From UHGV virus genome UHGV-0007863: 38,717 bases of DNA, one strand, 5' to 3'. Positions 5,762 to 37,145 of the stretch are shown here, in pieces. Made by a program: the position numbers and the translations under genes. Numbering within the stretch: position 1 is the first letter of the stretch; each line of letters opens with the position of its first letter. The notes beneath the pieces were generated by a model. It ran no database searches. It saw nothing but the letters and a program-made list of their open reading frames with translations, and was not told where the DNA came from. The DNA comes from a virus.

Positions 5762-6346
5762 TTATTGTTTGCTTTTTTCGTTCTGGTTGATGACAAATTC
5801 AATGTAACTTTCGATCTTTGCTTTCTCGGTTTCGGGTAACAATGCGTAGCGTGAGCGGTCATAGTTGATAGTCGCAGGGTCGTGCGGGTGAATCAGTAGT
5901 TCATATCCGTGACGCCCGAATGCGGATGCAACATTCTCCAGGGTGGAAATGGAAACGCTGACCTCATTGTTTAACAGGCGGCTGATTGTCACCTGGGCGA
6001 CGCCGGATGCGCGGTGAAGTTTTCCCTGTGTTGAAAGGTCGCGGCTTTCGCTCATCCAGCGTTCCAGGTTGTGAGCCGCCAGCTGACCTATATCGCTCGG
6101 GCCGACAGGCTGAAAACCCTCCTGAGAAAGCGAACGATCAATATCAAGCCAGTTACGGGGTTTATTGGCGGCAGCTTCAATTTTTCGTGCAACCTGGTCG
6201 CCGATAACCTTCTTGCCAAGAGCCCAGCGGTTTACCAGATTTGCCTGAGTTCCAAGTTTTTCTGCCATCCGCGTCTGAACACCATTGAATTCACGGTCGA
6301 TCAAGTCGTTGAGATTTTGCCTGCGGACGTCCTGGATACTTTTCAT
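5762..6346 (-). CDS. Prophage repressor (CI-like) with two HTH-like segments and no recognisable S24 peptidase domain
   Basis: 194 aa; HTH-like segments GVQTRMAEKLGTQANLVNRW and SGVAQVTISRLLNNEVSVSISTLENVASAF; no Ser-Lys dyad domain seen; divergent from a cro-like gene. Confidence 0.7.
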   Translation of the reverse strand: MKSIQDVRRQNLNDLIDREFNGVQTRMAEKLGTQANLVNRWALGKKVIGDQVARKIEAAANKPRNWLDIDRSLSQEGFQPVGPSDIGQLAAHNLERWMSESRDLSTQGKLHRASGVAQVTISRLLNNEVSVSISTLENVASAFGRHGYELLIHPHDPATINYDRSRYALLPETEKAKIESYIEFVINQNEKSKQ

Positions 6347-6401
6347 TTTCTGGAAAATCGCCTCATATATGAATCAGTAGATGATTCAATTTAAAGCAAT
6401 A

Positions 6402-6464
6402 TTACCCAACAGGTAAATGCACCTCATAGGTAACTATCCTTGATTTTTGTTACCTTATGGGTGA
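6402..6464. promoter_or_regulatory. Tripartite operator between repressor and cro-like genes: TTACC-CAACA-GGTAA (6402-6416), GCACC-TCATA-GGTAA (6419-6433), TTACC-TTATG-GGTGA (6450-6464)
   Basis: Three copies of the same dyad in the 154-bp divergent intergenic region, overlapping a -35-like TTGATT at 6440-6445. Confidence 0.65.
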
Positions 6465-6500
6465 ATATTTATTATCTGAAATAAATATCAGGCAATAGCT

Positions 6501-6731
6501 ATGAGCGATAACGGACATTTCGATTTCAAAAAGCACTGGCTTGCACTTACTCCGGATGAGCGTGAAGCCTTCGCACAGGAAGCCGGAACGACGAGTCACT
6601 ATATCCAGACTCACTTAACAGGTAAGCGCAAAATGCCAGGTAAGGTATTGATGAATGGGCTTTTTAAAGCCTGTAAAACAAGACAATGGCTGCGCTCAAA
6701 AGCAGAACTGGCATACTTCTTCTACTCATGA
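6501..6731 (+). CDS. Cro-like HTH regulator
   Basis: 76 aa; divergent from the repressor across the operator cluster; HTH-like AQEAGTTSHYIQTHLTGKRKMP. Confidence 0.6.
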   Translation: MSDNGHFDFKKHWLALTPDEREAFAQEAGTTSHYIQTHLTGKRKMPGKVLMNGLFKACKTRQWLRSKAELAYFFYS

Positions 6732-6753
6732 TATCCAGCTACAACCCTCTGTA

Positions 6754-6778
6754 GACCGCCACCCGGCGGTCTTTTCAT
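6754..6778 (+). terminator. Rho-independent terminator downstream of cro-like gene
   Basis: GACCGCC-ACCC-GGCGGTC followed by TTTTC. Confidence 0.55.
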
Positions 6779-6786
6779 ATCTATTC

Positions 6787-6801
6787 GTACCTCAAAGGTA
6801 A
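6787..6801. promoter_or_regulatory. Near-perfect operator-like palindrome GTACC-TCAAA-GGTAA
   Basis: One mismatch to TTACC-N5-GGTAA; lies between the cro terminator and the next gene. Confidence 0.45.
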
Positions 6802-6879
6802 TAAAAAACCAAATCTGGTTGATCAAATTTTCCAATTGTGCAAAATAGCCAATATCAATAACAAAAAGGGGCGGAAAAA

Positions 6880-7092
6880 TTGAAGATAGTAACCAGAATG
6901 GAGGCCGCAAAAGCCGGGTTAAATCGCTATTTCACAGGAAAGCGGTGCCGTCACGGCCATCTCTCTGAAAGGTATGTTCTGAACGGAACATGTGTTGAAT
7001 GTGCAATGAATAGCGCCAACCGCCATCGTAATGAATTTGCTTGTGCACTAAAGAGTGCAAGAGGGGAAACCTATGGCAAGCAGCTGGATTAA
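6880..7092 (+). CDS. Small Cys/His-rich protein at the cII position
   Basis: 70 aa with C-x-H-G-H ... C-x-x-C spacing suggestive of zinc binding; TTG start with GGGG upstream; overlaps the initiator start. Confidence 0.4.
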   Translation: MKIVTRMEAAKAGLNRYFTGKRCRHGHLSERYVLNGTCVECAMNSANRHRNEFACALKSARGETYGKQLD

Positions 7093-7903
7093 GGTTGAAG
7101 TTATCACTCCTGATAAACCTGAAATTTTTCAGATAGCAGAAATTCTGGGTATTGATCCAGATGCTGTTCTTGGAAAGCTGGTTCGTATATGGGCATGGGC
7201 TGACCAGCAAACAATAGACGGTAACGCTGGCAGCGTTACAAAAGGAGTACTTGATAGACTCGCTTTTATTACAGGATTTGCTGACGCCCTCATTAGCGTC
7301 GGATGGCTTGCTTATCATGACGGCAAACTAATTCTTCCAAACTTTGAGCGACACAATGGAGAATCATCGAAAAAACGTGCACTTACGAATAGAAGAGTGG
7401 CAGAGCATCGAAAACGAGTAACGCAAAAAGTAACGCCAACAGCGTTACAAAAGGAGTTACCAGAGGAAGAGGAAGAGGAAGATATATATAAAACCCCACA
7501 CATAGCGCACGTGCGCGAGGGTGCTCCGACCAGTGAAGCGAACGGTATGCCGTTGCAGGTGGCTGAACCTGAATTTCTGGATGGCCTGAGTGAACCCATC
7601 GGGAAATTTCCGATGACCGATGGCTGGCATCCGTCGCCGGATTTTCGACGGCGTGCTGCGCTGTGGGGAACGGCCCTGCCGGAACCGGAATTTACACCTG
7701 CTGAACTTGCTGCATTCCGGGATTACTGGATGGCTGAGGGCAAAGTGTTCACGCAGGTTCAGTGGGAACAAAAATTCGCCAGGCACGTAAATCATATCAG
7801 GGGAAAATCAAAAAACGCCGGGAAAAGCGATGAGCTTGACTGGAATAACACTGACTGGATAGAAGGGGTGTGGGATGAAATCAACTCCAGAACTTCTCAA
7901 TGA
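7073..7903 (+). CDS. Putative replication initiator (O-like) with internal iteron-like repeats
   Basis: ATG at 7073 with AGAGGGG Shine-Dalgarno; lies immediately upstream of the P-like gene; acidic linker PEEEEEED; function inferred from synteny and the internal repeats. Confidence 0.55.
   Translation: MASSWIKVEVITPDKPEIFQIAEILGIDPDAVLGKLVRIWAWADQQTIDGNAGSVTKGVLDRLAFITGFADALISVGWLAYHDGKLILPNFERHNGESSKKRALTNRRVAEHRKRVTQKVTPTALQKELPEEEEEEDIYKTPHIAHVREGAPTSEANGMPLQVAEPEFLDGLSEPIGKFPMTDGWHPSPDFRRRAALWGTALPEPEFTPAELAAFRDYWMAEGKVFTQVQWEQKFARHVNHIRGKSKNAGKSDELDWNNTDWIEGVWDEINSRTSQ
7221..7494. repeat. Candidate origin of replication inside the initiator gene
   Basis: GTAACGC half-sites at 7221(+), 7233(-), 7418(+), 7430(+), 7442(-); two copies of a ~28-bp unit GTAACGC-N5-GCGTTAC-AAAAGGAGT (7221-7248, 7430-7457) read in different frames; then (AGAGGA)x3 at 7462-7479 and an AT-rich GATATATATAAAA. 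Confidence 0.4.
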
Positions 7904-8651
7904 GTACGATCGCTTACGTGAGCATGGTGTTGCTGTGCATGAAGAGCGGCGTGACAGCAATGGCAAAAAGGAGCAGGTTGCTAGAATTTTCAATGAACTA
8001 TTTGTCCAGTTACAGGCTGCATTTCCTGCAAGCGTTTCGACCATAAGGGAGCAGAACAAACTTAATGAATTCCGTAAGCAATGGATGCTTGCGTTTCTGG
8101 AGAATGGGATCACAACAATGGAACAGGTTAACGCTGGTATGCGCCACGCCCGCGCCAGTGAATCTCCGTTCTGGCCGTCGCCAGGGCAATTTATCAAGTG
8201 GTGTAAAGACAGCAAGATGGTTCTTGGCGTCACCATTGACGATGTGATGGCGGAGTTTCACCGGTACAGCAAGGAAAAAAGTTTATATCCTGGTGGTCCC
8301 GAAAGATTCCCGTGGCGGCATCCGGTTATGTACTGGGTCGTATGTGATACCCGCCGTGCAATGTATCAGCGCCAGCTTAGCGAGATTGAGGTTGAGAAAC
8401 ACGCGCGCAGGCTGCTCGATGATTGGGCGAAAAAGGTGGCTTCCGGACAGCAGATACCCGATCCGGTGATCAGCATACAGGCAAAGCCAGAGCCCATGAG
8501 TACACCTCCGGACACAGGGAGAGACGTTTACCACCCGCCAGGGCGAAGTTTCGGGTGCATGCCTAACGCCGCCACCCTGGGGGGAATAACACCGGCGCAG
8601 TGGCTGATGGAGGAATACAGGCGGGGAAAGGCGGCAGGATTTATCAAGTAA
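7875..8651 (+). CDS. Lambda P-like replication protein (replicative helicase loader)
   Basis: 258 aa; FPAS..REQNKLNEFRKQWMLAFLENGITTMEQVNAGMRHARASESPFWPSPGQFIKWCK closely parallels the lambda P N-terminal region as recalled. Confidence 0.8.
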   Translation: MKSTPELLNEYDRLREHGVAVHEERRDSNGKKEQVARIFNELFVQLQAAFPASVSTIREQNKLNEFRKQWMLAFLENGITTMEQVNAGMRHARASESPFWPSPGQFIKWCKDSKMVLGVTIDDVMAEFHRYSKEKSLYPGGPERFPWRHPVMYWVVCDTRRAMYQRQLSEIEVEKHARRLLDDWAKKVASGQQIPDPVISIQAKPEPMSTPPDTGRDVYHPPGRSFGCMPNAATLGGITPAQWLMEEYRRGKAAGFIK

Positions 8652-8688
8652 TACCAGCGCGATAGCGCATTTTTTTACGTCTCGATGA

Positions 8689-8765
8689 TTACCTTCTGGG
8701 TAATAAAATATTCTAAAATCTATTGATTTCGTGTCTTATGTGGTTTTTAATTACCTCTTGGGTAA
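8689..8765. promoter_or_regulatory. Two perfect TTACC-N5-GGTAA palindromes (8689-8703, 8751-8765) upstream of the nin-like block
   Basis: TTACC-TTCTG-GGTAA and TTACC-TCTTG-GGTAA; the second ends 3 nt before the ATG at 8769; preceded by a weak GC hairpin plus a 7-T run at 8657-8676. Confidence 0.6.
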
Positions 8766-25698: not shown

Positions 25699-26243
25699 TG
25701 TGCGATCCGGTTATTGCTGGTGGCGCAATGCTCGCCATGAGTGGCATTCAGGCATACACCCAGTACCAACAGGGAAAGTATGCCTCGAAGGTTGCAGAAG
25801 CGAACGCAGATATAGCCACTGCTCAGGCAAATGATGCAATAAACAGAGGTAACGCTGAAGCTGAGCAACGGCGCAGAGAGACCCGACAGCGGCTTGGTAC
25901 ACAGGCGGCGACAATGGGGGCTACCGGCGCTGATTTATCTACAGGTAACGCGCTGGATATATTTGGCGACACTGCCCAGTTTGGCTCTCTTGATTCGCTG
26001 ACGACGGTGAATAACGCGCAACGCGAGGCTTACGGTTATCAGGTTCAGGCTGCCAACTATAAAGCAGAAGCCAGTTCAGCCCGTAAACAGGGGAATGTGG
26101 GAGCAGCAACAACATTGCTCACTGCGCCTCTGAAGGCATACGGTGCGTACCAGATGTTTGGTGGGACGTGGAGTCCGTTTACTCAAAGCACTCCTGCGCC
26201 AATCGGGGCAGCAGCAGGAACCAGATTACCCGGAGGATTATAA
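25698..26243 (+). CDS. Putative internal virion protein (T7 gp14 position)
   Basis: 181 aa; hydrophobic N-terminus; Gln/Ala-rich. Confidence 0.4.
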   Translation: MCDPVIAGGAMLAMSGIQAYTQYQQGKYASKVAEANADIATAQANDAINRGNAEAEQRRRETRQRLGTQAATMGATGADLSTGNALDIFGDTAQFGSLDSLTTVNNAQREAYGYQVQAANYKAEASSARKQGNVGAATTLLTAPLKAYGAYQMFGGTWSPFTQSTPAPIGAAAGTRLPGGL

Positions 26244-30560: not shown

Positions 30561-33035
30561 ATGAGACAGGAATGTATACAAGCGGTCCAGCAGGCGGCGC
30601 AGCGCACGTTAACGGCGCGAGAAATACAGAACATTGAAGACCGCATTTATCGAAATATGCGCTCCATTGCTCGTGATGACCCGATGTCGTGGAGACAACT
30701 TTCCGAATCAGAGCGGCTATATCGTGCAGCACAATTGGCATCTGAAGAATTACAGCGAGAAGCGGCATTAAGGAAACGTCGTGTGGCCCTCACTATAGCC
30801 GCACGTCAGAGATTGGATAAATTTATCAATAGCTATCAAGGGTCTGATGGGAAACTTGGCGCTCTTAACCGTACTATTGCTTTTAATGCAGACGGTAAAT
30901 CGAATTTCCTCTCTGTTGAATCCAGAACAAAAGCCACTCGTGATTATGCATTGAGTCAATTGCAGGAGGCATTTGAAGCAGTTGATCCTCGCTTTTTTGG
31001 CCTGTTTGAAGATGAAGCTGGCGTGCGTGACCTGGTATATGAAATGCGAGGGCAAAATACTGGCAATGCTAAAGCAAGAAAAGGTGCTAAGGCGTGGAGA
31101 GAAGTGACAGAGCTACTGCGCCGCCGGTTTAATGATGCTGGTGGGGACATTGGCTATCTCGAAAACTGGGGGATCCCTCAACATCATTCTATGGAAAAGG
31201 TTGGGGCGGTATCAAAGGATAAGTGGGTTAGCGATGTTATAGGTAAGCTGGATCGCAAATATTATATCCGAGCCGATGGACAACTGATGAACGATGCCGA
31301 GTTGTCTTCATTTCTTGGAGAGGCTTATAACACGATCGCTACTGGTGGGCTGAATAAGCTTACTGATACCGGAATGCGAATTTCCGGCGCACGTGCTAAC
31401 CGTGGTAATGCATCACGACAGATACATTTCAAAGATGCAGATTCCTATCTGCAATATCAACAACTTTATGGCGATCGCTCTCTATGGGAAATCATGGTCG
31501 GTCACCTGGAAGGTATCAGTAAAGATATTGCACTGGTGGAAACATATGGCCCAAACCCCGATCATGTTTTCCGCTCTCTTCTTGATCAGGTGAAGGCAGA
31601 AACGGCAACAGCTAACCCGAGTAAAACCGGTAAAGTCGAGCGGCTGGCGAACAACACAGAGAATCTGTACAACTTTATTTCCGGAAAGACACAGCCTGTA
31701 GCGAATCCGCACATCGCGCGATGGTCTGACAATATCCGCAACTGGCTGGTTGCCAGCAGACTCGGATCCGCGTTGCTGTCATCGTTCTCTGATCTTGGAA
31801 CCATGTATCTGTCTGCGAAGGTGACCAACCTTCCAATGAACCAGTTATTCCGCAACCAGCTTGAAGCTATGGACCCAACGAACCGTACAGAACTTGCGCG
31901 GGCGCGCCGCGCTGGTCTGGCGATGGAATCTCTACTTGGCAGCGTTAACCGCTGGGCGATGGATAATATGGGGCCGTCTGTGTCTCGTTGGGCTGCAACG
32001 GCGGTAATGCGTGCCAGTGGGCTTACAGCATGGTCAGATGCGCACAAGCGCGCCTATGGCGTAACCATGATGGGAAGCCTGGGAGAAGTAGTGTCACGGA
32101 CACCAGACCTTCGTAGCCTCGATGATTCTGATTTTCGTATCCTGAAAAGCAAAGGGATTACTGACACAGACTGGAGCGTATGGAAGCTGGCTCAACAGGA
32201 GGACTGGGGGAACGGCAATAATACGATGCTGACACCGGAAAGCATTATGCGTATCCCTGATTCAGCAGTTAAACATCTTGGTGAGCCTGAACGCGTGAAA
32301 TTTGAGGCAATGCGTAAACTGCTCGGTGCCGTAACTGAAGAAGTTGATATGGCTGTTATTACACCGGGAGCACGTGAGCAACTGATAACCGGTTCTGGTA
32401 TTCAGCGTGGAACATGGAAAGGTGAATTAACGAGAAGTGTTTTCCTGTTTAAATCGTTCCCTATCTCGGTGGTTATGCGTCACTGGTCACGCGCTATGGG
32501 TATTCCGTCTGCTGGTGGGCGTGCGGCATATATTGCGACGTTTATTGCCAGTACGACCATTCTTGGCGCTTTGTCGCAGCAACTTAACGACCTTGCGTCT
32601 GGTCGTAATCCTCGCGAGATGACAGGAGAAGATGCTGCTAAATTTTGGCTTGGTGCTCTACTGAAAGGTGGTGGTCTTGGCCTTTACGGTGACTTTTTAT
32701 TGTCAGATCACACTAGGTACGGAAGCGGCGCACTGGCGTCGATGCTTGGCCCGGTAGCTGGTCTGGTTGATGACGTAGTGAAGATTGCTCAGGGCATACC
32801 GTTAAATGCTGTGGAAGGGAAGAATGAGCAGACTGGTGGTGATCTGGTTAAGCTGGGGAAAGGTCTGATGCCAGGTGCGAATCTCTGGTACTTAAAGGCG
32901 GCTCTCGATCACATGATCTTTAACCAGATGCAGGAGTATTTTTCACCAGGTTATTTGCGTAAAATGGAGCAACGTTCGAAGAAAGAGTTTAACCAGACAT
33001 ACTGGTGGCGACCACAGGATGTCACTCCGCAATAA
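30561..33035 (+). CDS. Large internal virion / ejection protein (T7 gp16 position)
   Basis: 824 aa; last gene before the moron island and tail fiber. Confidence 0.45.
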   Translation: MRQECIQAVQQAAQRTLTAREIQNIEDRIYRNMRSIARDDPMSWRQLSESERLYRAAQLASEELQREAALRKRRVALTIAARQRLDKFINSYQGSDGKLGALNRTIAFNADGKSNFLSVESRTKATRDYALSQLQEAFEAVDPRFFGLFEDEAGVRDLVYEMRGQNTGNAKARKGAKAWREVTELLRRRFNDAGGDIGYLENWGIPQHHSMEKVGAVSKDKWVSDVIGKLDRKYYIRADGQLMNDAELSSFLGEAYNTIATGGLNKLTDTGMRISGARANRGNASRQIHFKDADSYLQYQQLYGDRSLWEIMVGHLEGISKDIALVETYGPNPDHVFRSLLDQVKAETATANPSKTGKVERLANNTENLYNFISGKTQPVANPHIARWSDNIRNWLVASRLGSALLSSFSDLGTMYLSAKVTNLPMNQLFRNQLEAMDPTNRTELARARRAGLAMESLLGSVNRWAMDNMGPSVSRWAATAVMRASGLTAWSDAHKRAYGVTMMGSLGEVVSRTPDLRSLDDSDFRILKSKGITDTDWSVWKLAQQEDWGNGNNTMLTPESIMRIPDSAVKHLGEPERVKFEAMRKLLGAVTEEVDMAVITPGAREQLITGSGIQRGTWKGELTRSVFLFKSFPISVVMRHWSRAMGIPSAGGRAAYIATFIASTTILGALSQQLNDLASGRNPREMTGEDAAKFWLGALLKGGGLGLYGDFLLSDHTRYGSGALASMLGPVAGLVDDVVKIAQGIPLNAVEGKNEQTGGDLVKLGKGLMPGANLWYLKAALDHMIFNQMQEYFSPGYLRKMEQRSKKEFNQTYWWRPQDVTPQ

Positions 33036-33231
33036 GGAAGTGTTGTGTTTTTAATTATTTTGAGTGTGATAATTTCTGGTGTATTGTTATTTATTGACCG
33101 CTACAAATATTTTCTTAACCCTCAGACTCAAGCTATTTGCTGGTTCATCTTTGTTGTGCAGGGAGTAGTTCTTGTTGCAAGCCTTATTGAGGGGAGGCCT
33201 CTTATTTTTACTGGGTAAATTAGGTGACTAC

Positions 33232-33528
33232 ATGCAAGCTATAGGATTCATTGTTTATATCGTCGTTGGTCTTTTTCAGTTGGCAGCAATTATGGCTGGG
33301 CTTGAATCATGGTGGGGATTGCACTGGATAATTGCAGCCCCCATTGCTTTCATCGTGAGCTATATTCCATTTGTTGGAGCGATTGTTGGTATGGTTGGCG
33401 CTGTGGATGTATGGCGGTGGGAGTGGTGGCAGGCTGGCCTTCTCTTCTTTGGTGGGATCATCTTTGCTATTGTCTGCGGTGGAATGTCATCATTTTTCGA
33501 ATGGCTATCATTCAGAAAAGGGACGTGA
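33232..33528 (+). CDS. Small polytopic membrane protein (moron)
   Basis: ATG 33232 with AGGTGA upstream; 98 aa, almost entirely hydrophobic; preceded by an AT-rich stretch at 33036-33231. Confidence 0.5.
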   Translation: MQAIGFIVYIVVGLFQLAAIMAGLESWWGLHWIIAAPIAFIVSYIPFVGAIVGMVGAVDVWRWEWWQAGLLFFGGIIFAIVCGGMSSFFEWLSFRKGT

Positions 33529-33536
33529 CATGTCAC
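33525..33536. repeat. 12-bp perfect palindrome GTGACATGTCAC, copy 3 of 3
   Basis: Read directly; overlaps the TGA stop of the membrane-protein gene. Confidence 0.7.
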
Positions 33537-33537
33537 A

Positions 33538-33562
33538 GGCCGCTTTCGCGGCCTTTTCTTTA
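33538..33562 (+). terminator. Rho-independent terminator after the membrane-protein gene
   Basis: GGCCGC-TTTC-GCGGCC followed by TTTTCTTTAT; overlaps the 3' end of the convergent minus-strand gene. Confidence 0.6.
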
Positions 33563-33817
33563 TGTGGTTTGTTTTCGTAATTGTTCGGCACAATAGTCGA
33601 GATGTGTTTGCAGATCCCGCATAGACATCTGTGAGCTGGTGACGTAGTTAATCAGTGCAGTCAGTTCGGCAAGTGGGCCATCGACATTAAATCCATCCTT
33701 ATCGAGATCCCGGAGTAATTTCATCAAGTGCGATCCTTCCACCAGTGACCTGACGCCTCCCGGCGTGTGAATCCTTTCGGTAAATCCGTCTTCCAGTGGA
33801 TAGTGATACTGCTGCAT
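33560..33817 (-). CDS. Small LexA-box-associated protein; candidate SOS-inducible antirepressor
   Basis: 85 aa from ATG 33817 (MQQYHYPL...), GGAG 8 nt upstream; ORF track gives a TTG start at 33835; a LexA box sits 20-40 nt upstream; function is inference. Confidence 0.5.
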   Translation of the reverse strand: MQQYHYPLEDGFTERIHTPGGVRSLVEGSHLMKLLRDLDKDGFNVDGPLAELTALINYVTSSQMSMRDLQTHLDYCAEQLRKQTT

Positions 33818-33836
33818 CTTATCTTCTCCATGCAAT

Positions 33837-33856
33837 AACTGTATATTTATACAGTA
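33837..33856. promoter_or_regulatory. LexA (SOS) box AACTGTATATTTATACAGTA
   Basis: CTGT-N8-ACAG with AT-rich spacer; 18/20 to the consensus TACTGTATATATATACAGTA; overlaps the likely promoter of the minus-strand gene. Confidence 0.75.
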
Positions 33857-33893
33857 TCAAATAATTTGTTTGCTATCCAGCACGTTTTGCAAA

Positions 33894-33908
33894 TTACCTG
33901 AAAGGTAA
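33894..33908. promoter_or_regulatory. Perfect TTACC-TGAAA-GGTAA upstream of the tail-fiber gene
   Basis: Read directly; a half-site GGTAA at 33955-33959 follows. Confidence 0.6.
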
Positions 33909-34012
33909 TATCTATTCATATTTACAGCCTTTCTATCCATATGTGGTTTTTCAGGTAATAGAATAACCAGATATGCGGCGCAACGGGTGCTGCGACTATC
34001 TGGAGATTTAAC

Positions 34013-36142
34013 ATGACGGTCTCAACCGAAGTTGACCACAACGAATACACCGGTAACGGCGTTACGACATCGTTTCCGTATACTTTTCGAATTTTCAGAA
34101 AATCAGACCTGGTTGTTCAGGTGTCTGACCTGAACGGGAACGTAACAGAATTGGTCCTGGATACCGGTTATACGGTAACTGGGGCGGGCACTTATAGTGG
34201 CGGTTCTGTGGTTCTTCTGTCTCCGCTTGCTACTGGATGGCGAATTACGATAGATCGTGTGCTTGATGTAGTGCAGGAGACAGACCTTCGCAATCAGGGA
34301 AAATTTTTCCCCGAAGTGCATGAAGATGCCTTTGACTACCTGACGATGCTGATCCAGCAATGTTTTGGGTGGTTCAGACGTGCATTGATGAAGCCCTCTC
34401 TGCTTGCAAAATATTACGATGCAAAGCAAAACAGAATTTCTAACCTTGCAGATCCATCACTTGAGCAGGATGCTGTAAATAATCGCTCAATGCGTAATTA
34501 TGTCGATGCTGCAATCGCCGGGGTTGTTGGTGGTTTTGGTTGGTTTATTCAGTATGGTTCTGGGGCTGTGCACCGAACGTTCCAGGATAAGATGAGAGAC
34601 ACCATTAGTGTTCGTGATTTTGGTGCAAAAGGAGACGGCATAACAGATGATACTGTAGCAATTCAAAATGCTATTAATGCAGTACCAGAAGGGGCTATAC
34701 TTGGATTTTATGGTGGTGAATTTGTTTTTGATAAGGTTGAATTGTTTAAGCCAATAACATTAGTTGGTGATGCAACGTTAATTCACAACGGATTTAGAAT
34801 AAAATCTAGCAGAATCCGATCACTTTTATCTGGCGTTCAGAAATGCAAGGATTACTCCGAGTCTTCAAGAGCATTTTATTGCTATGCAAATGAAGACCAA
34901 AGAGATTATGACGATATTCAGATTTTATTTAATAGATTTGAAGGTTTCTTTTACTCTACGGCATTTGTTGCAAAAAACTATTATTTGGAGAATGACCCTA
35001 ATTCAAGAATTGTCAAAAACACAAAAGTAATAGGGTGTACATCAGTTGCTCCTGATTCTGTAAATGCCGGTCATTTTCAACATATAGGCGTTACAAATGC
35101 TGAAACATCACATAACTCAACTTATGGCGGACAAAATGCAACATCATACAACTTCATTAACCAGAATGGATTTGTAAGGATTATAGGAAATTATGACCAT
35201 AACAATAGCTATGGTTCATGTGAGCTTGAGAACTCAATGGTGAGTAACTCAGTCATATCAGGTAATACGTTTTCGTCATATTTATGGGTGGATGATACAA
35301 GTAATGTTACTATTTCTGGAAATACAGTTTCATCAGGGATCAAAGTAACATCGCAAACTGACGATGTTCATAATATAACCATATCAGCAAATACCACAAA
35401 ACGGATTACTATAGAGCAATTTGGAGAATCTCCAACAGGTCTGGTATATGGTGCATTAATTTCCTGCAACACTATTACTGGCGACAGTGATGGAAGTTCA
35501 GACATTTTATGTACGTCACTTGTTACAGGTGAAATTTCATCAAATTATTGTCATGGATCAGAAAAAAATATATCAATTGTCCGCCTGGATTCTTCTGATA
35601 TAACCGTTAGAAACAATAAAGGAAACAAAGGATTACTTACAATAAGTAACGATGGTGGAAGGATAATTGAATATGGCAATGATTCTATGGTTCTGTCTGG
35701 AAGCATAGATAGCAGACATATACATAATTTATTACATCCAGACACATCGTATTTAGATCTACCGGGGAAATATCTGCACGGAACTAAATATACTGGCAGT
35801 ATCCCCCCCGGTTCCACAGGAACTGTATCACTTCAAATACCATCAGGGGCAAGCCTTGTTTTCAGGGGGGTTTCTATATGGGTTCTAATTAGAGATGTTA
35901 GCAATAACAATATATCGTCATTCAGAATTGATGGTTCATATAGAGTTGTTGGTGGAAGTGTTGGTCTTAGTTTTGCTGATGCTTATTCGAAACTCGGGGT
36001 GGATGCAAACTCTATAACAGTGTCAAACAATAACAGCACTTCTGACAATATCAGCATAGCAATTAAAAACACAGATTCATCAAAAACCCTTCAGGTTACT
36101 GTTATGCCGGAGGTTTCAAGCAGGTTAGGTATTGAGGAATAG
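34013..36142 (+). CDS. Tail fiber / tailspike with T7 gp17-like N-terminal adaptor domain and beta-helix-like, AT-rich distal domain
   Basis: 709 aa; N-terminus parallels the T7 tail-fiber N-terminal pattern; distal part has repeats such as NVTISGNTVSSGIKV...NITISANTTK; base composition turns AT-rich from about 34600. Confidence 0.75.
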   Translation: MTVSTEVDHNEYTGNGVTTSFPYTFRIFRKSDLVVQVSDLNGNVTELVLDTGYTVTGAGTYSGGSVVLLSPLATGWRITIDRVLDVVQETDLRNQGKFFPEVHEDAFDYLTMLIQQCFGWFRRALMKPSLLAKYYDAKQNRISNLADPSLEQDAVNNRSMRNYVDAAIAGVVGGFGWFIQYGSGAVHRTFQDKMRDTISVRDFGAKGDGITDDTVAIQNAINAVPEGAILGFYGGEFVFDKVELFKPITLVGDATLIHNGFRIKSSRIRSLLSGVQKCKDYSESSRAFYCYANEDQRDYDDIQILFNRFEGFFYSTAFVAKNYYLENDPNSRIVKNTKVIGCTSVAPDSVNAGHFQHIGVTNAETSHNSTYGGQNATSYNFINQNGFVRIIGNYDHNNSYGSCELENSMVSNSVISGNTFSSYLWVDDTSNVTISGNTVSSGIKVTSQTDDVHNITISANTTKRITIEQFGESPTGLVYGALISCNTITGDSDGSSDILCTSLVTGEISSNYCHGSEKNISIVRLDSSDITVRNNKGNKGLLTISNDGGRIIEYGNDSMVLSGSIDSRHIHNLLHPDTSYLDLPGKYLHGTKYTGSIPPGSTGTVSLQIPSGASLVFRGVSIWVLIRDVSNNNISSFRIDGSYRVVGGSVGLSFADAYSKLGVDANSITVSNNNSTSDNISIAIKNTDSSKTLQVTVMPEVSSRLGIEE

Positions 36143-36170
36143 CATCATATATAATTATTTTAATGTTAAT

Positions 36171-36197
36171 GCCGTCTTCTTGTTGGCGGCTTATTTG
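36171..36197 (+). terminator. Terminator-like hairpin after the tail-fiber gene
   Basis: GCCGTC-N8-GGCGGC (one G-U pair) followed by TTATTT. Confidence 0.45.
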
Positions 36198-36218
36198 TGA
36201 AAATCGAATGAGTTATCT

Positions 36219-36518
36219 ATGATGAATATAGAAGTTGATATAACACCAATTCTTCACGCACTTTGCGCTGTTGTCGCACAAGTTCTTGTTGGTCTTTTTA
36301 CCGGAAACTGGGCTTACGGTGCGATAGCCGGTTGTACGTTCTTCATTGCGCGTGAACACACCCAGGCAGAATATCGCTGGATAGAAAAGTTTGGGAAAGG
36401 GAAACGTATCAACATGCCGTGGTGGGGAGGTTTTGATCCGCGCGTATGGGATGTTGGAAGCCTGTTTGACTTTGTTGTTCCTGTTACTGTTTGTTTTTGT
36501 GTTTATTTCTCTATTTGA
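36219..36518 (+). CDS. Hypothetical membrane protein between tail fiber and lysis cassette
   Basis: 99 aa with hydrophobic N- and C-terminal segments; weak Shine-Dalgarno. Confidence 0.45.
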   Translation: MMNIEVDITPILHALCAVVAQVLVGLFTGNWAYGAIAGCTFFIAREHTQAEYRWIEKFGKGKRINMPWWGGFDPRVWDVGSLFDFVVPVTVCFCVYFSI

Positions 36519-36740
36519 CTGCTACCGCGCCATTTGATGGTGCGGAATTCAACTAATCCTCTATATTTTGAATCATTTCTGTACTGCAATCTCTTCAGAG
36601 TTATGTAAAAGGCAAGCCTTATTATCGACATGAAAGGAAGGGGATTGACAATACATGGGTAACAAAAAACCATAAATGGTTTATCATGCATAATGCCTTT
36701 ACTATTCAGGAGGTAGTTATGCATATAAACGGTGGAAAAC

Positions 36741-37145
36741 ATGTCAGCTCAACTAACCAGTGAAACTTTAAATCAGTGGCTTAGCATGAGTTCTCTGGCG
36801 GCGGTGATAGCAGGAGTTCCTCCTGAGGTTGCTTTGGGGGCTTTGGCTGGGGCGGTAATTTTTGTTACCTCTGCGGTAGAGTATCCTATTCGTCGTCGTG
36901 TACTCTTGTCGATGCTTAGCTTTCTCTGCGGCCTTCTTTTTTATAAACCAGCAGCATCAATTCTTATCGGCATAGCCAGCCTGATCCCTACCATCACGCA
37001 GGACTCTTTTGAAAAAGGGATTGTTTTCTCAGTTGGCGCATTCGTGTCAGCAATTGTTGCTGTGCGTATTGGTATATGGCTCTATCACCGTTCCGATAAT
37101 CCACGCGAGTTAATTCCGGGGAGAAAAGACGATGGTAACGCATGA
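36741..37145 (+). CDS. Putative holin
   Basis: ATG 36741 with GGTGG 5 nt upstream; ~134 aa with three to four hydrophobic helices and a charged C-terminus; first gene of the lysis cassette. Confidence 0.55.
   Translation: MSAQLTSETLNQWLSMSSLAAVIAGVPPEVALGALAGAVIFVTSAVEYPIRRRVLLSMLSFLCGLLFYKPAASILIGIASLIPTITQDSFEKGIVFSVGAFVSAIVAVRIGIWLYHRSDNPRELIPGRKDDGNA

Follow-up and report, generated by a model that had tools for sequence, protein, structure and literature searches.

The replication origins of bacteriophage lambda and of the Stx phages are located in the middle of gene O, where 19-bp imperfect inverted-repeat iterons serve as binding sites of the O protein and precede an AT-rich tract that is needed for unwinding (PMC7466680). 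An active origin, oriJ, has been reported for the Rac prophage as well (PMC3945230), but a map of oriJ at the sequence level was not found in the literature. The locus described here is part of a viral genome of 38,717 nucleotides (UHGV-0007863), and this whole stretch is referred to as the window. Like the lambda origin and those of the Stx phages 933W and P27, the candidate origin lies in an initiator gene that is immediately followed by a gene encoding a P-family loader, it consists of 19-bp dyad sites followed by an easily melted and strand-asymmetric tract, and its AT-proximal part falls in the predicted interdomain linker of the initiator. As in lambda, the N-terminal domain of the initiator goes with the sites and the C-terminal domain with the loader. 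Unlike lambda O, however, the initiator possesses an N-terminal domain that matches no Pfam family and a C-terminal domain that is DnaT-like, and it is without sequence relation to O. In place of the four tandem 19-mers of lambda, there are 7-bp half-sites of mixed orientation on a 12-bp pitch; the candidate origin is bipartite, with one cluster of sites ~209 bp upstream in the coding sequence of a folded domain; and its AT tract is only 13 bp long and is accompanied by a conserved (GA)n tract. We propose, with a probability of about 80%, that positions 7221-7493 of the window constitute the vegetative theta-type replication origin of a Uetakevirus-like prophage, inside the gene of its own initiator.

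The initiator gene (7073-7903, plus strand) encodes a protein of 276 amino acids in which a disordered linker connects a putative DNA-binding domain at the N-terminus to a DnaT-like domain at the C-terminus, and the protein matches phrog_2509, "replication initiation protein," with an E-value of 1.5e-129. The only Pfam family found above the threshold is DnaT (PF17948, E = 6.5e-19), which covers residues 179-249 (coding sequence 7607-7819, plus strand), and profile comparisons match this C-terminal domain to the solved C-terminal domains of DnaT (i.e., 6aep, 4ou6 and 9zbt) with E-values from 1e-23 to 1e-25. The C-terminal domain is homologous to that of E. coli DnaT, the primosomal protein I of the PriA restart primosome, but the N-terminal domain is different and the protein is paired with a P-like loader and a candidate origin. 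Because its match to the NCBIfam DnaT equivalog NF002770, which covers only residues 172-252, scores 93.4 bits and falls below the cut-off of 201, the initiator is not DnaT. The downstream gene (7875-8651, plus strand), which overlaps the 3' end of the initiator gene by 29 nt, encodes a lambda-P-like helicase loader that matches both Phage_lambda_P of Pfam (PF06992, E = 1.7e-55) and phrog_109, "P-like helicase loader" (E = 2.3e-89).

Residues 1-100 of the initiator yielded no Pfam match even at E ≤ 10. The folded N-domain within this region (residues ~10-88, coding sequence 7100-7336, plus strand) consists of four helices and a β-hairpin and, when modeled alone, is predicted by AlphaFold2 to be compact, with a pLDDT of 81.7 and a pTM of 0.77. 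AlphaFold2, which was run with 38-46 homologues, also gives a pLDDT of about 90 for the C-domain and predicts residues 90-161 to be disordered (pLDDT < 50). A fold search of PDB with the N-domain returned no significant match, and the weak matches include many winged-helix domains; from BFVD only uncharacterized homologues were recovered, together with weakly matching replisome-organizer and DUF1376 proteins. The N-domain family comprises 6,812 representatives at 50% identity (E ≤ 1e-3), in which the domain is nearly always located at the protein N-terminus. The homologues of the initiator all begin with MASSWIK or MAGDWIK. The protein homologue search was carried out with the full-length query; a query of the 115-aa N-domain gave short fragments only.

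The repeated element of the candidate origin is the heptamer GTAACGC. Five exact copies in direct and inverted orientation, as claimed in the initial annotation of this DNA, are found in the initiator gene at 7221 (+), 7233 (-), 7418 (+), 7430 (+) and 7442 (-), and a sixth and degenerate copy, GAGTTAC with one mismatch, is found at 7454-7460. All are spaced on a strict 12-bp pitch, and with the site at 7454-7460 included the downstream sites form an array of the type > > < <. The whole 38.7-kb window contains 15 copies of GTAACGC versus 3.4 ± 1.9 expected, a count that no shuffle reached, and five of the 15 are packed into 230 bp. The half-sites form two 19-bp palindromes. The first, GTAACGC-TGGCA-GCGTTAC at 7221-7239 (cluster A), is the candidate distal initiator site and encodes the loop G50-T56. 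The second is part of cluster B (7418-7460), the candidate origin-proximal array of initiator sites, which consists of the exact copies at 7418, 7430 and 7442 and the degenerate copy at 7454 and is read in the window as V-T-Q-K-V-T-P-T-A-L. A 28-bp unit, GTAACGC-N5-GCGTTAC-AAAAGGAGT, occurs in exactly two copies, at 7221-7248 and 7430-7457, where none is expected. The two copies had been described as lying in different reading frames, and they indeed differ in codon phase: with codons numbered from the ATG at 7073, position 7221 is position 2 of codon 50 and position 7430 is position 1 of codon 120. The parallel to lambda that had been drawn for this region stands for cluster B, which together with the purine run and the AT tract described below is encoded in the predicted disordered linker (residues 90-161), and for the P-like gene that comes next; it does not extend to cluster A, which lies within the coding sequence of the folded N-domain (loop residues 50-56) rather than in the linker, or to the protein, which is not an O homologue. 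A small Cys-rich ORF (6880-7092) was also considered as the binder of these sites and was rejected, as it is absent from several loci that retain the sites.

Repeats inside a gene may be a by-product of repeats that the protein itself needs, in this case xNAx, SVT and EEEEEE, and both DGNAxSVT and LPEEEE/REEKRRE occur widely among the family members; the peptide encoded by cluster A (DGNAxxVT), for instance, is found in 99 of the 144 top family representatives. To this explanation the synonymous positions are opposed. From IMG/VR, GenBank phages and genomes, 70 distinct homologous N-half DNA sequences were collected, a set that is weighted toward Enterobacterales, and were reduced to 23 representatives with <97% identity. 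Among sequences sharing the amino acid, the mean pairwise synonymous difference was 0.14 for the 26 codons under the motifs versus 0.51 for the 94 other degenerate codons (Mann-Whitney p = 5.6e-11), and 13 of the 26 motif codons never varied versus 2 of the 94 elsewhere (Fisher p = 1e-8), in a test that was not fully blind and not pre-registered, as its codon windows were drawn from the motifs of the initial annotation and from a first look at the data. The codons of G50, N51, S54 and V55 show no synonymous variation in the 23 representatives; Ser54 is always encoded by AGC, Leu125 and Leu129 are always encoded by TTA, and the codons of E131-E136 are GAG GAA GAG GAA GAG GAA in 55-60 of 60 close homologues.

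The translations differ where the DNA is kept. The GTAACGC units at the place of cluster B are read in the neighboring frame, as S/G/C-N-A, in Serratia, Pectobacterium, Pseudomonas and environmental phages and as V-T in the window, so that one DNA motif appears as V-T, xNA or A-L depending on the frame. Likewise, the purine tract of distant homologues is (AGAGA)n and encodes EKRREE rather than EEEEEE, i.e., the same kind of purine tract is translated into different peptides, and where the phage genes are GC-rich (57-65% GC), each gene contains 3-5 of the rare AGA codons, three of which cluster in this tract. Half-site copy number also varies in steps of 12 bp (4 amino acids), as in DGNAGSVT versus DGNANGNATSVT, and cluster A grows by such 12-bp steps in the homologues of Rac442, Serratia and Pectobacterium. 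In view of the frozen synonymous positions and the changing frame, we consider it extremely unlikely that the repeats merely follow from peptides needed by the initiator. The synonymous conservation, the frame-shifted reading in orthologues and the AGA codons in the purine tract show instead that selection maintains the half-sites as DNA and not as codons, in agreement with what had been argued from the window alone.

Selection on nucleotides could also act through RNA, with the palindromes serving as mRNA hairpins or antisense terminators that control the translation or stability of the initiator message. RNA folding of 7400-7530 gave a z-score of -3.3, and terminator-like matches were found on the minus strand at both palindromes. 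These weak minus-strand hairpins are, however, the only features that a promoter and terminator scan detected at the palindromes, and homologues do not conserve them: those of Serratia and Pectobacterium lack the T-run that follows the minus-strand hairpin. Moreover, the stems are without compensatory change, the sequence is preserved exactly, whether inverted or directly repeated, copy number varies, and Rfam has no match within 6300-8700. A role as RNA structure is thus hardly probable.

The initial annotation had counted an absence of the repeats from homologous initiator genes as evidence against its interpretation. The opposite was found: all homologues examined, whose hosts range from Escherichia to Ralstonia, Xanthomonas, Vibrio and Cobetia, contain half-site clusters followed by a polypurine tract and an AT tract at the equivalent place, down to ~33% N-domain identity. 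In all homologues with GTAACGC half-sites, cluster A is located at nt 149 of the gene. The core palindrome of cluster B (7430-7448 in the window) is universal, while the position of the outer site is nt 346 for the clade of the window and nt 382 for the others. The spacings between clusters A and B are 207, 209, 216, 219 and 231 bp and show no clean multiple of the helical repeat. Distant N-domain homologues, which were found by tblastn against phages, also contain an upstream cluster and a second cluster that adjoins CCAGAGAAGAG... and an AT tract, and in these the half-site changes with the subfamily. The half-site is GTAACG(C) in Enterobacterales and in Pseudomonas VW-6S, Xanthomonas CP2 and Ralstonia YL1 (52-55% identity for these three), GTCAC in Vibrio 1.211.A (48% N-domain identity), GTAGAC in Ralstonia Raharianne (39%), and GTCCGC in epsilon15, phiPSA1, RPZH6 and Cobetia Carin1 (33-35%). 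For each class, 3-8 copies of its half-site are found in the first 480 nt of the gene versus 0-2 in the remaining 1.5-2.3 kb of a locus of 2-3 kb.

The four half-site classes track four N-domain subfamilies, and we infer that the N-domain is the reader of the half-site. Of the evidence that ties the sites to the N-domain, that of the distant homologues is the strongest. A scan of IMG/VR for the exact pattern GTAACGC-N5-GCGTTACAAAA returned 157 matches in 120 loci, of which 153 are inside genes of N-domain homologues and on the coding strand; two of the other four are cut by locus ends, and two are just upstream of a replication gene.

The association of sites and N-domain is also seen where the gene is mosaic. 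Directly after the AT tract, at 7482-7497, is a joint at which N-module-only homology ends and C-module-only homology begins: in blastn comparisons, phages that share only the N-half match the query from position 1 to 410-425, and those that share only the C-half match it from 412-419 to 730. GTAACGC clusters are combined with a DnaT-like C-domain and a P-like loader in the window, BUCT554, Serratia, Pectobacterium and Proteus, with a different C-domain in Klebsiella phi3.2, and with the DnaC-like YdaV in Rac of E. coli 442/2; the partner gene next to the repeat-bearing N-module can be P-like, DnaC-like or DnaB-like. The ydaU gene of Rac of E. coli 442/2 (MN652886) possesses the N-domain of the window (70% identity), the GTAACGC clusters and the polypurine and AT tracts, although its partner is DnaC-like and that of the window is P-like. 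In contrast, Rac of K-12, in which oriJ was defined, possesses a DUF1376 N-domain and other repeats, ATGTTCAAACA, at the equivalent position. Rac-SA53 combines a DUF1376 N-domain with the C-module of the window from AAACCCCACACATAGCGC onward, and in place of GTAACGC it contains TGTTCAAACA-type repeats and an AT-rich tract, as does ydaU of K-12 Rac. With the breakpoints of the swaps located immediately past the AT tract, the repeats stay together with the N-domain regardless of which C-domain or loader follows, and the comparisons show that sites and N-domain are inherited as one across such swaps.

A joint in this position can be read in another way, namely that the polypurine and AT tracts, possibly together with the repeats, are conserved as linker homology for recombination between N- and C-modules and have no role in initiation. 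The joint is just past the tract, the tract is common to otherwise dissimilar modules, and in another 114 E. coli genomes the only match is one of 35-43 bp to 7448-7490. Such selection would, however, be second-order and weak, and it leaves unexplained the co-variation with the N-domain, the inverted and direct arrangement at 12 bp and the presence of cluster A, while a joint beside the origin is itself a prediction of a two-domain initiator design of the lambda type. We therefore regard linker homology as a very unlikely reason for the conservation of these elements and retain the origin as the preferred reading.

Downstream of cluster B, the previously noted (AGAGGA)x3 and GATATATATAAAA are present at 7462-7479 and 7481-7493, respectively. 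The former continues with AGA into an all-purine run of 21 nt on the plus strand (7462-7482), which is proposed to be part of an unwinding or helicase-entry element, and the latter is a 13-bp AT tract and a candidate DNA-unwinding element. Its earlier description as an AT-rich tract holds at the local scale, as 7478-7493 is the least stable 16-mer of 6400-8700 and ranks in the top 0.2% of the window, but with only 13 bp the region is unremarkable at the 40-bp scale, and the flanking 60-bp windows have an ordinary 42-45% GC. The strand asymmetry, i.e., the 21-nt purine run and an AT skew that reaches 0.70, is a stronger feature than the AT-richness. Neither a DnaA box (TTWTNCACA) nor an IHF consensus was found within 7000-7700, and the candidate origin contains no GATC, the single one being at 7154. 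The cumulative GC skew has its minimum at ~5-7 kb, where gene orientation changes from leftward to rightward, and for this reason the GC skew cannot locate an origin.

Iteron-binding initiators of plasmids often autoregulate, and the half-sites might be nothing but operators through which the initiator blocks or attenuates the transcription of its own gene and of the loader gene, with replication starting elsewhere. Such a function would be in keeping with binding sites within the regulator's own transcription unit and with the location of cluster A, which is far from the AT tract and within the coding sequence of the N-domain. Autoregulation alone, however, does not explain why, in each of the four half-site classes, cluster B always adjoins polypurine and AT sequences that are conserved; no second structure of repeats and AT tract was found near the replication genes; and autoregulation and origin function can coexist. 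Operators without an origin are, in our view, improbable.

Based on the lambda system and on E. coli DnaT, we propose that replication would be initiated from 7221-7493 as follows. The N-domain of the 7073-7903 protein, to judge from its co-variation with the sites, may recognize the 7-bp half-site GTAACGC. By analogy to the 19-bp inverted-repeat iterons of lambda O, dimers or oligomers of the protein would occupy the head-to-head palindromes and flanking half-sites of clusters B and A, and the nucleoprotein complex so formed on supercoiled DNA may open the adjacent polypurine and AT tract (7462-7493). The DnaT-like C-domain may hold single-stranded DNA, contact the loader or both, and the P-like protein (7875-8651) would deliver the host DnaB, as is suggested by E. 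coli DnaT and lambda P. A more far-reaching version, which is speculative and which we consider rather unlikely as a whole, is that this is the first recognized origin type of a large Pfam-unclassified initiator family (~6,800 clusters at 50% identity), in which the half-site of 6-7 bp, read by a small N-domain, has undergone four or more re-codings. Such an origin would be bipartite, and the sequence that encodes the DNA-binding domain would itself contain one of the clusters; across ~20 helical turns, clusters A and B would be bridged by the initiator, with its own gene looped out; and the DnaT-like domain and the loader would place DnaB on the strand of the invariant (GA)n purine tract. If the bridging and the placement of DnaB proved true, the phage would possess a shortcut into the restart-primosome pathway of the host that does not involve PriA.

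Iterons of plasmids are 17-22-bp direct repeats that are located in non-coding DNA, usually together with DnaA boxes. The candidate origin resembles those of iteron plasmids with initiators of the RepA, pi and TrfA families in that a cognate initiator, whose binding is predicted here, is combined with repeated sites that adjoin an AT-rich element for unwinding, and in that the specificities of site and initiator co-evolve. It differs from them in that its sites are found in coding DNA, in mixed orientation and without a DnaA box, and in that its protein is unrelated.

No published description of this origin was found in the literature, although an earlier in-silico mention in older reviews (e.g., Weigel and Seitz, 2006) is possible. 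The paper on vB_EcoP_ZX5 mentions no origin, and in the curated record of epsilon15, sites for the repressor and for IHF are annotated, whereas the stretch around the replication gene shows no origin feature. The candidate origin would belong to an initiator family that is unrelated to lambda O and so far undescribed. An origin in or near such a gene is what a specialist would expect, so that the finding is only moderately surprising; its value comes from the comparative evidence, from the series of four specificities and from how large the family is. The results provide a sequence-level candidate origin for the Uetakevirus group (i.e., epsilon15, phiV10 and TL-2011b) and for a widespread initiator family of prophages in E. 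coli, Klebsiella, Salmonella, Pseudomonas, Xanthomonas and Ralstonia. The four pairings of half-site and N-domain may serve as a natural system for the evolution of initiator specificity under reading-frame constraint and as a possible source of orthogonal replicons, and the odd low-complexity peptides of these proteins (xNAx repeats, EEEEEE and REEKRRE) would be explained as shadows of DNA elements.

In favor of an origin, two circular records of phage-like "plasmids" also contain the module, and one of them is without any other typed replicon. In the window, the AT tract is followed by CCCC and then by a GC palindrome, GCGCACGTGCGC, at 7505-7516, at the start of the C-module; its membership in the origin is uncertain, and it is found with variation in Rac-SA53 and partly in Pectobacterium L090. 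Patches of low variation were also observed at 7259-7273 and 7370-7384.

Within the initiator gene, synonymous variation falls to near zero not only at the half-sites of the putative origin but also at two patches that lie off them, CTCGCTTTTATTACA at window 7259-7273 (codons 63-67) and AAAAAACGTGCACTT at window 7370-7384 (codons 100-104). Because an extra GCGTTA(C) half-site found in the homologous loci L086-L088 and L220 aligns with the patch at 7259-7273, this patch may be a decayed half-site. On the 3' side of the origin, the purine run and AT tract of most homologues are followed on the same strand by a pyrimidine-rich run, which reads CCCCTCTCTCT, CCCCCCTAACCCCCC or CCCCACACA (for example, L001 at ~1921-1935, L002 at ~1931-1950 and L087 at ~1640-1670), and the strand asymmetry that results in most homologues is purine, then AT, then pyrimidine.

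The IMG/VR locus L200 (7826-8829) contains an initiator-like ORF of 315 aa without a Pfam match, in which GTCACG occurs three times at gene nt 139-160 and two to three times at nt 389-410, with a purine- and AT-rich tract 3' of the second group. A primase-helicase with Toprim and DnaB_C domains is encoded next to it on the 3' side. Just 5' of the start of the initiator-like ORF, the last part of a very small ORF contains a GTAACGC cluster with two copies in one orientation and a third inverted. A second IMG/VR locus, L152 (6456-6510), has the same arrangement as L200. The YdaU of the K-12 Rac prophage (ydaU, L085 2472-2578, NC_000913.3) is of the DUF1376 type, and its linker-coding DNA contains an AT-rich tract preceded by about five ATGTTCAAACA-type repeats in both orientations. 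These repeats are candidate iterons of oriJ, the reported Rac origin, of which no sequence-level map was found in the literature searched.

The initiator and GTAACG clusters are also present on two circular phage-like "plasmid" records, CP088505.1 (L221) and NC_015459.1 (L222), of 52 kb in E. coli and 41 kb in Pusillimonas. MOB-suite assigned no replicon type to the E. coli record; the two may be phage-plasmids or excised phages captured in assembly.

Directly 5' of the initiator gene and overlapping it is a Cys-rich ORF of 70 aa (window 6880-7092; phrog_1081, function unknown). A small ORF of similar size occupies the equivalent position in the BUCT554, Klebsiella, Serratia and Proteus loci and is absent from the Rac442, VW-6S and CP2 loci. 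Further upstream, the repressor gene 5762-6346(-) is divergent from the cro/cII-like gene 6501-6731(+), and operator-like 13-mers of the type ACCTCATAGGTAA and their inverted copies (window 6404-6466, 6611-6625 and 6789-6801) lie both between these two genes and around them. The 13-mers differ from the origin half-sites and are probably the immunity operators.

Outside the origin, GTAACGC occurs 10 times (5571, 13344, 16288, 20946, 25849, 25945, 30149, 34059, 35088 and 37135), compared with ~3.4 copies expected for the whole window, and is thus over-represented there too. The copies at 25849 and 25945 form a direct pair with 96 bp spacing; none of the 10 is part of a palindrome or 12-bp pair. 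Near the right end, GC falls to 0.39-0.43 over ~4 kb (33000-37000) that include an ORF of 709 aa (34013-36142); the drop suggests that this is a tailspike or moron region gained by horizontal transfer.
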